Assembly: GCA_019058445.1 (NCBI GenBank)
Contig: JAHPZA010000004.1
Span: 32,001 to 96,000 of the forward strand
DNA length: 64,000 nucleotides
DNA from: Promethearchaeota archaeon
GTDB lineage: Archaea; Asgardarchaeota; Lokiarchaeia; Sigyniarchaeales; SOKP01
Direction: 5' to 3'
In this document: positions 25,579-29,406 of the stretch, piece after piece
How the letters are laid out: every line of letters begins with the position of its first letter
Position numbering within the stretch: the stretch's first letter is position 1
Program-made: the position numbers and the translations under genes
The notes under the pieces: model-generated
Databases searched by the model: none
What the model was told of the DNA's origin: nothing
The model's input: the letters and a program-made list of their open reading frames with translations, nothing else

Positions 25579-25788
25579 TCACCATGAATTATAATAAAAC
25601 TCAAATCAAAATTCAATAATTCTATATTTAAACTTAATTCATATAAATTAAATAGACTAAAAAAGAAAATTTGAATAGAATAAGACTATCTGTTGTGCTA
25701 TAAAAGTATTATTATTTTAATTTTTGACAACATAAAAAGTTAAATTTTCAACTAGAAAATTCAAAAAAGAGATTAATTTCTAATATTT

Positions 25789-26181
25789 ATGCCTTTAGTT
25801 AGAGTAGAGATTTTAAAAGGAAAAAGCTCAGAATATAAAAGAGCCATACTAAATGGAATTCATGCCGCTTTAAAAGAAGCTTTAAAAATCCCCGATTATG
25901 ATAGAACACAACGATTATATGAGCTCGATAAATCTAACTTCGAAATTCATAGACAAAGATCAGAAAACTATACAATAATCGAAATAACCATGTTTAGAGG
26001 TCGAAGTCTCGAAGCGAAAAGAAAGCTATATTCAGAAATTGTGAAGAATCTAAAATGTGCCCCAGGAATCGATGGAATGGATATTGTAATTGTTGTACAT
26101 GAGCCTAAATTAGAGAATTGGGGTATTCGAGGAGGAAAACTTCCAAATGAGGCGGGATTAGAATTTAAAATCGAAGTCTAA
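25789..26181 (+). CDS. Tautomerase superfamily protein
   Basis: N-terminal catalytic Pro (MPLVRVEI), 'GRSLEAKRKLY' and 'ENWGIRGG'. Confidence 0.88.
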   Translation: MPLVRVEILKGKSSEYKRAILNGIHAALKEALKIPDYDRTQRLYELDKSNFEIHRQRSENYTIIEITMFRGRSLEAKRKLYSEIVKNLKCAPGIDGMDIVIVVHEPKLENWGIRGGKLPNEAGLEFKIEV

Positions 26182-26345
26182 CAATTAATTTTTTTTTTTA
26201 AATTATAGCATTAGTTTTTAATCCAATCTGATTGATAGTAAATAGATCTTATCTATTATCGGAAAGAATGGTCAGAAAACAAAAAGTTTTTAACATATGA
26301 GATTATTTTTTTTTATAATTAACAACTACATTGGGAATAAAAAAA

Positions 26346-26459
26346 ATGAAAACGCTTCGAAAAAGCATTACTTTTGATATAAAAATAAGTTTGAGGCGAA
26401 TTTCTTCCCTAGTCTTGTTGTTAAGTTTATTAGATCTACTTTTATTATTATTACTTTAA
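26346..26459 (+). CDS. Leucine-rich leader peptide (37 aa) of leuA
   Basis: MKTLRKSITFDIKISLRRISSLVLLLSLLDLLLLLLL*. 15 Leu in total, 13 in the last 16 codons. Ends 93 nt before the leuA ATG. Below the ORF-track length cutoff. Confidence 0.8.
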   Translation: MKTLRKSITFDIKISLRRISSLVLLLSLLDLLLLLLL

Positions 26460-26516
26460 GCCTCGTCTCGTTTTATAATATTTGAGGTCTTTGATCTCTT
26501 ATAAACGTGGTGGGGC
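26460..26516 (+). promoter_or_regulatory. Long RNA hairpin in the leuA leader (putative attenuator switch)
   Basis: GCCUCGUC(26460-67) pairs with GGUGGGGC(26509-16). CGUUU(U)AUAA pairs with UUAUAAACG, and GAGGUC-UUU-GAUCUC forms the apical stem. GC-rich island in an AT-rich spacer. Confidence 0.65.
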
Positions 26517-26552
26517 GTTGTAATATAAATAAATCAAATTAGGTAATTTAAA

Positions 26553-28166
26553 ATGACAGAAAAAGAGGACATATATGTCTCGCAGATGATGGATAAAATA
26601 CGAGGGTCATTGATCCTTCCTGAAAGGGCGTATTTTTTTGATACGACCCTTCGTGATGGAGAACAGACACCAGGAATTAGTTTCAATCATGAAGAAAAAT
26701 TATCAATAGCTCAAGCTTTAAATGAACTAGGGATTGATATCATTGAGGCTGGATTTCCCGTTATTTCTGAGGGAGATTTTAAAGCATGCAAAGATATTTC
26801 TAAAATGGGTTTAGATTCCGAAATAATGGGTTTAGCTCGCATAAAGAAAATCGACATTGATAAAGTTATTGAAGCAGATATGGATAGCATACACGTGTTT
26901 ATTGCAACTTCAGATCTTCACATGAAAGAAAAATTGCAGATGACACGAGAAGAAGTATTAAAGGATATAGCAGAACTAACTTCATATGCTAAGGAGCATT
27001 ATTCAACAGTTTTATTTTCAGCAGAGGATGCAACACGGTCTGACTTGGATTTTTTAATTAAAGCTAATAAAACTGCTGTTGAAAGTGGCGCTACTCGGGT
27101 AAATATACCAGATACTGTTGGTACCATAACTCCTAATGCTTTTGGTTATATCATTCGAAAAAATTATGAAGCACTACCTAAAAACATAAGAATTGCCGCT
27201 CACTGCCATAACGATTTTGGATTGGCAGTTGCAAATACTATTGCTGCGTTTGAGAATGGGGCGTCTGAGGCACAAACTACAATAATAGGATTAGGAGAAC
27301 GAGCGGGAAACGCGGCTTTCGAGGAAACAGCCATGTCTCTTTATGCTTTATATCGAATACCTATGAATATCAATACCAGAAAAATTTTTCCTACAGCAAA
27401 ATTAATAGAAAGCTATTGTGGTGGAAAGATTAAAATAGGAAGATTGCAGCCATTAATCGGCCAAAATGCGTTTGCCCATGAATCTGGCATTCATGCTCAT
27501 GGAATGATAAAACATGCGCGTGTGTATGAACCAATTACACCAGAATTGATAGGAATTCGACGCTCTGATGATGTTGAGCAAATAGTTAAAAAATCGATTA
27601 AATTAGGAAAGCATACAGGAGGGCATGCCCTTAAAGCAAAATTAGAGGATTTAGGAATTCATCCTACAGATATACAATTTAGAAAAATCTTCGATCATAT
27701 CAAAAGATTTGGAGATAAAGGGCATGAAGTAATGGAAGAAGATTTTTTAGCAATTGTAAAAGATGTTATGGGTGAACTACCCGAAGAAGAGCAATATGTA
27801 AAAATTGAGGAACTGACGGTTTTAACCGGCTCCGTTACTCCTACCAGTACCGTTAGGTTAAAGATTCGTAATAATGGAGATTATATAGAAAGAACTGAAT
27901 CTTCTATAGGCGTAGGTCCTGTTGATGCATCATGTAGAGCAATAGTTAAATGCTTTGAGCCTATGAGTAAAGTTAAGCTTTTGGAATATAATATTGATGC
28001 TGTGACTGGAGGAACTGAAGCTTTAGGACATGTTTCCATTGAGTTAATGGATTTAGAAACTAATAATATTGTAAGGGCATCTGCTGCTCATGAGGATATA
28101 GTAATGAGCTCCGTACTTGCGCTTATAAAAGGACTCAATCGTATCGTGAAAGATAAAAATCCATAA
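26553..28166 (+). CDS. leuA: 2-isopropylmalate synthase (DRE-TIM family with C-terminal regulatory domain)
   Basis: DTTLRDGEQ, HCHND, GLGERAGN, FAHESGIH, GVGPVDA. Citramalate synthase cannot be excluded from motifs alone, but the Leu leader favours LeuA. Confidence 0.82.
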   Translation: MTEKEDIYVSQMMDKIRGSLILPERAYFFDTTLRDGEQTPGISFNHEEKLSIAQALNELGIDIIEAGFPVISEGDFKACKDISKMGLDSEIMGLARIKKIDIDKVIEADMDSIHVFIATSDLHMKEKLQMTREEVLKDIAELTSYAKEHYSTVLFSAEDATRSDLDFLIKANKTAVESGATRVNIPDTVGTITPNAFGYIIRKNYEALPKNIRIAAHCHNDFGLAVANTIAAFENGASEAQTTIIGLGERAGNAAFEETAMSLYALYRIPMNINTRKIFPTAKLIESYCGGKIKIGRLQPLIGQNAFAHESGIHAHGMIKHARVYEPITPELIGIRRSDDVEQIVKKSIKLGKHTGGHALKAKLEDLGIHPTDIQFRKIFDHIKRFGDKGHEVMEEDFLAIVKDVMGELPEEEQYVKIEELTVLTGSVTPTSTVRLKIRNNGDYIERTESSIGVGPVDASCRAIVKCFEPMSKVKLLEYNIDAVTGGTEALGHVSIELMDLETNNIVRASAAHEDIVMSSVLALIKGLNRIVKDKNP

Positions 28167-28221
28167 AATACGATTTTATTTTTATTATTCTTTTTCTTTT
28201 TATTACAGTCAAATTCATAAG

Positions 28222-29406
28222 CTATTTTAAGAACTCTTCAAGAGAATTATAGACAATTTCTAAAGTATCTAAATCTGGTAAAAATGTTATTCTAAAATGA
28301 TCTTTTCCATAATTACCAAAACCAGAGCCATAAACAGTGCAAATTCCCGTCTTTTTAAGAAGATCTAACACGAATTCTTTATCATTATTCCATTGAGTAA
28401 ATTCTTTAAAATCAATTTTAGGAAATAAATAAAAAGTCCCATCAGCGTTATTACAGGTTAATCCTTCGATTTGCTTTATTCGCTTATAGGAATAATCGCG
28501 TCTCTCTCTTAATTTTTTGACCATTTCATCTGTATGAGGGCCAGGATTTCGAATAGCTTCAATAGCAGCAAATTGAGCTACAGAATTTGCACATAATCTT
28601 GCTCGAGCTAATTTTTCAATACCCTCCTTTAATTCTGCTAATTTATTTAGCTTATCATGGTAATAGATATATCCCATTCGCCACCCGGTTGCAAGATGAG
28701 CTTTTGAAAATCCATTCATTCCAATAATAGGTACGTCATTACTAAGAGAACTAGGACATACATATTCTTTTTCATAGGTTATTTGATCATAGATTTCATC
28801 AGATAAAATAGGTAAATCATATTCACCTGCTAAATCAATGATCTGTTTGATTTTATTTCTACTATATACTATTCCCGTTGGATTATTGGGAGAACAAATC
28901 AAAATGGCTTTAGTTTTATTAGTAATTTTCTTTCTCAAATCATCAATATTAGGTTCCCAATTATCACTTTCGTCAAGTTCATATTCTACTGGAATCCCAT
29001 CAAAAAATTTGGAATAATTAATATAAACTGGATAGGACGGACCAGGGATAAGAAATTCATTATTATTATCTAATAATCCGGCCATAACAAAAAAAATACC
29101 TTCTGTGACTCCAGATGTAATTAAAACATCGTCCGGCTTAAGATCTATGTCATTTTTATTATTTTCATATTTACATATCGCTTCGCGTAGCTCCCTCACA
29201 CCTAAACTATCAACATAATAATTTTGTCCAGCAAAGGTAGCATCCGCAGATGCTTGTGAAATATATTCTGGAGTTTTAAAGTCATATATAACTGGATCTC
29301 CAATATTTAAGTGATATATTTTTTGACCTGTTTTTTTCAGTTCATTCGCGACTGCTGCTACATCTCTTATTGCGTATTCGAGATCTCTTAACCTCCTAGT
29401 AACCAT
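28222..29406 (-). CDS. Class I/II PLP-dependent aminotransferase (alanine/aspartate type)
   Basis: LNIGDP, SPNNPTG, SDEIY, GFSKAHLATGWRMG. Confidence 0.93.
   Translation of the reverse strand: MVTRRLRDLEYAIRDVAAVANELKKTGQKIYHLNIGDPVIYDFKTPEYISQASADATFAGQNYYVDSLGVRELREAICKYENNKNDIDLKPDDVLITSGVTEGIFFVMAGLLDNNNEFLIPGPSYPVYINYSKFFDGIPVEYELDESDNWEPNIDDLRKKITNKTKAILICSPNNPTGIVYSRNKIKQIIDLAGEYDLPILSDEIYDQITYEKEYVCPSSLSNDVPIIGMNGFSKAHLATGWRMGYIYYHDKLNKLAELKEGIEKLARARLCANSVAQFAAIEAIRNPGPHTDEMVKKLRERRDYSYKRIKQIEGLTCNNADGTFYLFPKIDFKEFTQWNNDKEFVLDLLKKTGICTVYGSGFGNYGKDHFRITFLPDLDTLEIVYNSLEEFLK

Follow-up and report, generated by a model that had tools for sequence, protein, structure and literature searches.

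A leucine-codon-rich leader reading frame upstream of leuA in a Promethearchaeota archaeon and its candidate role in ribosome-mediated attenuation

The gene leuA of a Promethearchaeota archaeon, which encodes 2-isopropylmalate synthase, is preceded on the same strand by a short upstream open reading frame (uORF) that ends in a dense tract of leucine codons. We found this arrangement in a stretch of 64,000 nucleotides (nt), positions 32001-96000 of contig JAHPZA010000004.1 (C4), which we call the window and whose numbering is used throughout unless another locus is named; the genome comprises 4.6 Mb in 10 contigs at approximately 30% GC. The occurrence of a Leu-rich uORF before leuA is real and well beyond chance. 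Judged from sequence comparisons, the uORF is very probably a translated sensor of leucine codons that controls leuA in cis, and the proposal that ribosomes sense cognate codons in a leader of the Promethearchaeia is strongly supported. On balance, we favor a ribosome-mediated attenuator of leuA as the explanation of the whole. These archaea most likely use ribosomes to sense amino acids, a form of control that has so far been described only in bacteria.

Leucine, isoleucine and tryptophan leader reading frames

The features on which the leucine case is built are as follows.

26346-26459, plus strand: leader open reading frame (ORF) of 37 codons and a TAA stop, identified by its translation, leucine ranking and conservation
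26409-26456, plus strand: candidate sensor tract, the last 16 codons of the translation, of which 13 are Leu
26553-28166, plus strand: leuA, encoding 2-isopropylmalate synthase of 537 amino acids (aa; NF002085, 581.8 bits)

The peptide claimed in the initial annotation is reproduced exactly by translation from the ATG at 26346 to the TAA at 26457-26459. It is 37 aa long and carries Leu at 13 of its final 16 codons, the final seven without interruption. Within the Leu tract, the only other residues are V, S and D, while F, Y and I do not occur, and all four of the Leu codons that had been reported are in use; across the whole leader, these are TTA (seven times), CTT and TTG (three times each) and CTA (twice). 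The ORF that begins after a spacer of 93 nt from the uORF stop does encode the leucine-synthesis enzyme that had been named. Its product scores 581.8 bits against the NCBIfam model NF002085 (2-isopropylmalate synthase), above the cut-off of 517, and 219.9 bits against the citramalate synthase model, below the cut-off of 450; it falls under the cut-offs of equivalog-level models. CimA is a separate paralog of the LeuA family in the same genome.

Given that the T-rich DNA of AT-rich genomes readily yields Leu, Phe and Ile codons by composition, we measured the background against which this tract must be judged. Among the 41,057 ATG-initiated ORFs of 12-80 aa found in six frames of the 4.6-Mb genome, the uORF ranks first for C-terminal Leu content: 13 of its last 16 codons are Leu, compared to 11 in the runner-up and 9 in the next three. 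In a further, unbiased scan, we took 2,710 small ORFs in intergenic sequence that are followed by a long ORF at a distance of 30-220 nt and tested each of them for enrichment in every one of the 20 amino acids. The highest-scoring ORF is a Trp-rich uORF located before trpB2 (binomial 8e-9), followed by the Leu-rich uORF before leuA (5e-8), and both precede a gene that makes the very amino acid in which they are enriched.

Conservation was assessed using leuA orthologs from 26 of 40 relatives and from 31 named Promethearchaeota contigs. The upstream regions were read by three-frame translation, which gave 37 distinct leaders from two families, f1 and f2, after removal of duplicates. At nearly all f1 loci and at most f2 loci, leuA is preceded by a Leu-rich ORF whose end reads LLLL(L)-stop, and the uORF stop lies 82-101 nt ahead of the leuA ATG in 33 of the 37. 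Within the last 16 codons, Leu accounts for 385 of 592 codons (65%), compared to 15 for Phe and 11 for Ile. Every leader has Leu at positions -3 and -4, encoded variously by TTA, TTG, CTT and CTC, while the +1 frame of the Leu stretch contains 76 stops among the 37 leaders and the residues beyond the Leu tract vary freely. The Leu content, the synonymous changes and the +1-frame stops together indicate that selection acts on codon meaning in the tract, as opposed to T-richness or peptide sequence. In-frame conservation with synonymous variation, which the initial annotation had proposed as a check, is thus seen at 37 distinct Promethearchaeia loci. No Leu-run uORF was seen before leuA at 17 loci searched in six other Asgard families, nor at leuA loci with readable upstream sequence from Hadarchaeota, other euryarchaea and bacteria.

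The composition of the peptide raises the question of whether the ORF encodes a small hydrophobic peptide that inserts into the membrane and acts in trans, with its adjacency to leuA being incidental. In the peptide, a hydrophobic tail of approximately 19 residues comes after a basic N-terminus, and single-helix membrane proteins are frequent among small prokaryotic proteins (PMC10903887). However, what has been conserved is Leu content and position only, and not individual residues, and the uORF always stands before leuA at a fixed distance. Searches of the leader peptides against Pfam and NCBIfam returned no family match, and their exact sequences are absent from the collection of 15 billion proteins that we searched. 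In addition, the Trp counterpart, a W-x-W-x-W peptide with Arg and Gln, is not membrane-like. We therefore consider a membrane peptide to be extremely improbable.

The initial annotation had also suggested that genes of other amino acid pathways be examined for uORFs rich in their own codons. Two were found, upstream of cimA and trpB2.

L003:1306-1374 (G000:C9:413878-413946), plus strand: Ile-rich leader ORF MKIMKIIPIGIIITSIIIGIII, with 13 Ile in 22 codons; its gene is at L003:1492-3102
L030:3066-3122 (G000:C6:1236705-1236761), minus strand: Trp-rich leader ORF MATVNNWAWRWQWPWRWR, with 6 Trp in 18 codons; its gene is at L030:1501-2901 (minus strand)

Citramalate synthase is the entry enzyme of the citramalate route to isoleucine, and the Ile-rich uORF lies 117 nt ahead of the gene for this enzyme, cimA (TIGR00977, 671.9 bits with a cut-off of 450). 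The Trp-rich uORF lies 164 nt ahead of a gene for a TrpB2-type tryptophan synthase beta subunit (NF009057, 638 bits). Cognate leaders that are conserved and pass our filters were obtained at 15 cimA loci and 14 trpB2 loci. One architecture recurs for three amino acids, each time before a cognate gene for a first step or for salvage, and this makes the sensing interpretation hard to avoid. The cognate leaders also provide independent support for the functions assigned to the three LeuA-family paralogs, as 2-isopropylmalate synthase and citramalate synthase.

The Trp type extends beyond the families in which the Leu type was found. In the Asgard families f5, f6, f18 and f24, Trp-rich open frames with putative starts end 94-182 nt before trpB2 (L156, L157, L167 and L171; also L159 and L174), and a two-Trp form precedes trpB2 in family f9. 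An MGFALT start is common to the f5 and f18 frames, and in f5 the sequence past the stop is similar to that found in the genome from which the window comes. On the basis of these frames, the Trp leader may be phylum-wide in Asgard archaea.

Several other candidates were considered and rejected. A Met-rich ORF on C4 is an alternative frame of an acidic coding stretch, and what seemed to be another Ile-rich ORF, on C9, is the cimA leader in reverse complement. A Cys/His-rich ORF of 54 aa on the minus strand of C6 (reverse-complement 336743-336908) lies 142 nt before a gene of 607 aa resembling acetolactate synthase; it looks like a small metal-binding protein and not a leader. No leader was seen upstream of the third LeuA paralog (L002). 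In the spacer of the Trp leader L058, approximately 60-40 nt before the trpB2 ATG, there are two more conserved small hairpins with no Rfam match, one with a GAUUUCC/GAAUUCC loop and the other of the form ACACAU-N-AUGUG.

The stop-adjacent hairpin

The spacer between the uORF and leuA carries a predicted RNA structure that begins where the uORF ends.

26460-26516, plus strand: 57-nt hairpin that starts directly after the uORF stop, with outer arms at 26460-26470 and 26506-26516 and a U-rich interior
26391-26397, plus strand: conserved UUGAGGC within the uORF, which can pair with GCUUCGA (26354-26361), as in the minimum free energy (MFE) fold, or instead with the 5' arm of the hairpin

The hairpin at 26460-26516 has a predicted stability of -20.5 kcal/mol in the sense orientation versus -9.4 kcal/mol in the antisense orientation, with a z-score of -3.9. 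A hairpin of 40-70 nt that starts between -3 and +6 nt from the leader stop is found in all 37 spacers. Compared to dinucleotide shuffles, these hairpins have a mean z-score of -3.35, with values below -2 in 29 of 37, and in 32 of 37 the sense strand folds more stably than the reverse complement does (mean of -20.6 versus -16.1 kcal/mol). G-U pairs account for 95 of the 772 pairs. The preference for the sense strand and the G-U pairs argue that the structure is RNA read from the uORF strand and not a palindrome in the DNA, and since the spacer forms a sense-strand RNA structure, it would be transcribed from a point upstream of the hairpin. The spacers of the other two leader types behave similarly, with mean z-scores of -2.3 for cimA and -2.1 for trpB2 and with the sense strand favored in 15 of 15 and 13 of 14 loci, respectively.

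Compensatory change was examined with a covariance model that was built from six close sequences and iterated once to give a 13-sequence alignment. In this alignment, which is fitted to the model and therefore somewhat favors structure, 89.8% of the cells pair and both sides change in 10 of 20 pairs. None of 500 shuffles equals the alignment, and slid controls pair at 45-59%. Because the hairpin is nearly palindromic, searches with the covariance model matched the antisense strand too, and E-value thresholds were set so as to drop the antisense matches. RNAalifold found no structure in an 18-sequence MAFFT alignment of the whole leader, in which the arms are misregistered; folding each sequence separately and aligning with the model recovered the hairpin. 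In distant lineages, the hairpin is at the same place and the sequences of its arms are unrelated.

The conserved UUGAGGC motif could provide the hairpin's 5' arm with a second partner. The duplex between the two is predicted at -8.08 kcal/mol for native pairs and -7.24 kcal/mol for cross-species pairs (permutation p 0.004), a modest signal which hints that the leader may take further states.

We also observed that the 5' part of the uORF, at 26353-26398, is conserved at the nucleotide level, and that GCUUCG/A shortly after the ATG can pair with the UUGAGGC 30 nt further on. This hairpin within the coding region may influence initiation at the uORF or folding kinetics.

A possible switch and its alternatives

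Any model of control depends on the signals that surround the uORF and leuA. The promoter-like and SD-like signals ahead of the uORF were identified in an alignment of the 100 nt preceding it at the 37 loci.

26189-26199, plus strand: T11 run resembling an archaeal oligo-T terminator, 8 nt after the stop of a tautomerase-like gene
26281-26294, plus strand: block AAAAAGTTTTTAAC, resembling a transcription factor B recognition element (BRE) and TATA box
26312-26326, plus strand: second conserved block, TTTATAATTAACAAC, approximately 22 nt past the first
26333-26337, plus strand: Shine-Dalgarno (SD)-like GGGAA of the uORF, 8 nt before its ATG
26517-26552, plus strand: A-rich linker, which carries the SD-like UAGGU
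26540-26544, plus strand: SD-like UAGGU of leuA, 8 nt before its ATG
28167-28205, plus strand: T-rich tract with T4-T5 runs after the leuA stop, a probable terminator

The TATA-like motif that the initial annotation had placed at 26281-26294 is present, and it is the best conserved upstream block across the 37 loci, with the consensus gaAAAATTTTTAAt. It is probably the promoter of a leader-leuA transcript, and the second block is probably the transcription-start region or a second TATA-like element. Ahead of the uORF ATG, relatives keep GGGA, AGGA or GGA at 8-12 nt, a fragment of the SD consensus. The corresponding motif of leuA is UAGGU in f1 and AAGGAG in f2; both are parts of the SD consensus, and this swap between parts of one consensus argues that the leuA motif is an SD and that a 5' leader is present on leuA mRNA. 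Within the window, genes end with T-runs directly past the stop, and oligo(dT) has a role in archaeal termination (PMC13681488). With the T11 run upstream and the T4-T5 runs after leuA, both of them usual archaeal terminator signals, the leader-leuA unit looks bracketed, and the T11 run looks as though it would insulate the unit from the upstream gene.

The public RNA data consist of contig-level runs, and one sediment metatranscriptome (X18) held pieces from relatives. A 151-nt X18 contig from a close relative (approximately 89% identical) spans 26415-26566 and so includes the Leu tract, the hairpin, the SD and the start of leuA, and two shorter X18 contigs lie on the uORF. The long contig is weakly consistent with co-transcription of the uORF and leuA. 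In X18, positions 25700-26308 are uncovered and coverage of the leuA body is patchy, a pattern that can be read neither as absence nor as a transcript end.

From these elements we propose a single transcript, driven by a promoter at approximately 26281-26326. It would begin with the leader ORF and its SD, continue with the hairpin directly at the leader stop and with the A-rich linker that bears the SD of leuA, and end with leuA itself. Ribosomes would translate the leader, and its 13 Leu in 16 codons would tie the transit of ribosomes to the supply of charged tRNA-Leu. Upon leucine shortage, ribosomes would stall in the Leu tract and expression of leuA would rise. We infer that the leader is translated, that it responds to leucine, that shortage raises the expression of leuA and that termination is the step involved. 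The interpretation as a Leu-sensing leader, as put forward in the initial annotation, has held for every prediction that could be computed and is supported as far as sequence reaches.

How stalling might be communicated to leuA is suggested by a familiar precedent. In the E. coli trp leader, region 2 starts a few nt past the leader stop; a ribosome at the stop masks region 2, and a ribosome stalled upstream lets the 2:3 antiterminator form. Since the 5' arm of the archaeal hairpin abuts the stop as region 2 does, we propose by analogy, and tentatively, that the switch is premature-termination control in which the stop-adjacent hairpin is an antiterminator-type element. A ribosome at the uORF stop would cover the next 10-12 nt, which is the 5' arm of the hairpin, and would leave the 3' arm unpaired. 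The U-rich leader RNA would then be single-stranded and exposed to archaeal termination, whether at oligo-U or by FttA/aCPSF1. A ribosome held in the Leu tract would leave the 5' arm free, so that the hairpin would fold, RNA polymerase would continue, and leuA would be translated from its own SD after read-through.

Termination in archaea depends on oligo-U tracts and also on FttA/aCPSF1, a factor with a preference for U-rich nascent RNA (PMC13681488). An ortholog of FttA/aCPSF1 is encoded in the genome (TIGR03675, 875 bits), although the involvement of FttA in leader control is purely conjectural. U-rich tracts 10-50 nt past the leader stop are common to the Leu, Ile and Trp types. The interior of the Leu hairpin is moderately U-rich, with U4 at +11 in many loci; the Ile type has a U-rich tract at +20 to +50 past the stop; and in the Trp type, runs of U5-U7 occur 26-38 nt past the stop in 9 of 14 loci. 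The surrounding structures differ in form. The Ile leader has a small hairpin across the stop followed by a long hairpin with a pyrimidine- and U-rich loop, whereas the last Trp codons and the stop of the Trp leader form a GC-rich hairpin with the sequence immediately 3' of them. Taken at its widest, the proposal is of an Asgard regulon under ribosome-directed attenuation, with Leu, Ile and Trp leaders over leuA, cimA and trpB2, a Trp type that is phylum-wide, and coupling to archaeal termination through an occludable antiterminator hairpin. We offer this as a conceivable scheme, with somewhat more doubt than confidence.

Several observations weigh against a termination switch of this kind or against the firmness of the case as a whole. 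The leader has no defined terminator. There is no bacterial-type terminator after the hairpin, and no U-run after it is conserved across the 37 loci, whose 3' flanks are A-rich or mixed. U-runs within the Leu hairpin are of limited length; most are U4, and in 10 of the 37 loci no run reaches 4. The Ile leader has its U-rich tract in the loop of the hairpin and not in the stem, which fits poorly with the idea that folding shields it. Only a single conserved structure was found, and the gain that supports alternative pairing is a modest 0.8 kcal/mol. The relatives are not independent of one another, so the p-values overstate the case. The RNA support is one short contig from a relative, the library may contain DNA, and the contigs show neither ends nor strand. 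Finally, the inner stem contains two TATA-like words, TTTTATAA and CTTATAAAC, that rank with the most highly conserved words in f1 spacers.

This last observation would suit a leuA promoter inside the spacer, at the TATA-like words of 26471-26478 or 26497-26505, with the uORF being either a separate small transcript or an untranslated element that senses nothing; AT-rich TATA-like words are common in this genome. In contrast, the strand-specific structure of the spacer, its many G-U pairs and its compensatory changes argue that it is selected as sense RNA, and f2 and other lineages keep the hairpin without the TTTTATAA and CTTATAAAC words. The frame, ATG, SD-like motif and Leu identity of the uORF are all kept through synonymous changes, cognate Ile and Trp leaders stand ahead of cimA and trpB2, and the RNA-library contig joins the uORF to the start of leuA. 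An internal promoter is, in our estimation, most unlikely, and the non-regulatory readings taken together are quite unlikely.

A stalled ribosome could also act on translation of leuA instead of on its transcription. In a mechanism of translational attenuation, the U-rich Leu tract or another segment of the leader would hide the leuA SD, and a stalled ribosome would free it. The MFE fold of 26340-26570 does pair the Leu tract with the linker and the SD around the hairpin, and the SD region has a predicted pairing that averages 0.60, with the uORF as partner for 0.51. Masking the footprint of a stalled ribosome raises the unpaired probability from the SD to the AUG from 0.45 to 0.58, with an increase in 27 of 37 loci. 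In addition, leuA keeps an SD of its own, the type of which differs between families, and the architecture matches that of SD occlusion in two bacterial systems (PMC1262725; 10.1101/834739). Nevertheless, the predicted gain in accessibility is small, and the pairing between uORF and SD is near the level set by composition, with codon-shuffled uORFs giving 0.45 compared to 0.51 for the native ones. Duplexes between the Leu tract and the linker are no stronger in native pairs (-8.0) than in cross-species pairs (-8.2) or with reversed sequence (-9.1), and duplexes between the spacer and the SD likewise show no native advantage (p 0.76 for leuA, 0.60 for cimA and 0.51 for trpB2). Composition by itself is enough to make U-rich Leu codons pair with an A-rich linker. 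The SD-hiding model has no specific support, and we judge it unlikely.

The fate of the mRNA is another step at which leucine shortage might be felt. Stalled ribosomes stabilize ermC mRNA, and a ribosome parked near the 5' end could, together with the hairpin, block 5'-to-3' decay and so stabilize the leuA message. The leader is near the predicted 5' end with a stable hairpin next to it, and there is no clear sign of either a terminator or SD occlusion. This model nonetheless lacks specific support, and it leaves unexplained why all 37 spacers have the hairpin abutting the stop, at -3 to +6 nt from it. We regard it as very unlikely.

Known attenuators and the leuA neighborhood

The enterobacterial leaders trpL, leuL, hisL and ilvL resemble the archaeal leaders in that each is a short ORF rich in cognate codons, located on the same strand just before the first gene of a pathway, with a separate leader for each amino acid. 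The position of the next RNA element is also alike: region 2 of trpL starts within a few nt of the leader stop, as does the archaeal hairpin. In contrast, the archaeal leaders have no sequence or covariance-model match to these systems and no terminator hairpin with a U-run, and a single conserved hairpin was found in place of the 1:2, 2:3 and 3:4 set. The host RNA polymerase, being archaeal, terminates at oligo-U or with FttA and not at hairpins or with Rho. The Leu tract is far longer as well, with 13 Leu compared to the four carried by leuL. In E. coli tnaC, where attenuation acts through Rho, a ribosome near the leader stop gates the access of a termination factor, as would be the case here, and the Rho analogue FttA/aCPSF1 is encoded in this genome. 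However, at tnaC the nascent peptide and free Trp cause the stall and a catabolic operon is induced, whereas in the archaeal leader a stall for want of charged tRNA would induce a biosynthetic gene.

Two actinobacterial systems bear on the comparison. The LEU element upstream of actinobacterial leuA, for which an SD-hiding model has been proposed (Seliverstov et al. 2005, PMC1262725), likewise consists of a Leu-run uORF before leuA and a compact structure between the Leu run and the SD, with no obvious terminator, and Leu codons of the archaeal leader are joined to the SD by a base stem in its MFE fold. Unlike in the LEU element, this base stem does not rise above composition in the codon-shuffled, reversed and cross-species controls, a simple long hairpin stands in place of a pseudoknot, and the two share no sequence relation and belong to different domains of life. 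In the mycobacterial Cys ribulon, stalled ribosomes on leaderless poly-Cys uORFs have been shown to open a duplex that hides the ribosome binding site (RBS; Canestrari et al., 10.1101/834739). The archaeal leaders resemble it in having several cognate-codon uORF loci per genome, regulon-like control and no need for a classical terminator; they differ in that an RBS-hiding duplex is not supported and the uORFs are SD-led instead of leaderless.

Rfam searches at E<=1, which covered Leu_leader, Trp_leader and the other leader families, gave no match in the leuA, cimA and trpB2 leader loci, and at E<=10 the window gave chance-level matches only. The initial annotation had stated that attenuation by amino acid leader peptides is not an established archaeal mechanism, and our search of the full-text literature, which found no report of it in archaea, agrees; the uORF4u paper mentions archaea only generically (PMC10219788). 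The element appears to belong functionally with the ribosome-mediated amino acid attenuators, while being a member of no described family.

Leader-peptide attenuation is a textbook form of control that needs coupled transcription and translation and has been regarded as bacterial. If the proposed mechanism is correct, it would be the first of its kind in Archaea, and the conserved set of Leu, Ile and Trp leaders would show that archaea sense amino acids via the translating ribosome. The leaders would also raise the question of how the signal reaches a eukaryote-like RNA polymerase in a system without hairpin terminators. Direct functional evidence for the coupling of transcription and translation in archaea has been described as scarce (PMC13681488). 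A cis element of approximately 270 nt that is compact and mutable suits tests of archaeal coupling and of FttA-dependent termination. The leaders also flag small ORFs that are unannotated and have been overlooked by gene callers.

The leuA query had no match in the relatives G008-G010, G015, G016, G019, G020 and G022, nor in most of the sampled genomes of the genera g2, g8 and g11. Many of the leuA-negative relatives are near-complete genomes of the same family in which trpB2 is present, and several of them also gave no cimA match with this query. Leucine auxotrophy may be frequent in the source family.

In the window, the gene upstream of the leader unit (25789-26181, plus strand) encodes a protein of 130 aa with two halves that resemble 4-oxalocrotonate tautomerase; it matches the NCBIfam models TIGR00013 and NF001966, each under its cut-off. 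Downstream of leuA, at 28222-29406 on the minus strand, lies a gene for a pyridoxal phosphate (PLP) enzyme resembling alanine aminotransferase (NF006230, 519.8 bits, slightly below the cut-off of 534). Since this neighbor is convergent, leuA is solitary and stands outside any leu operon.

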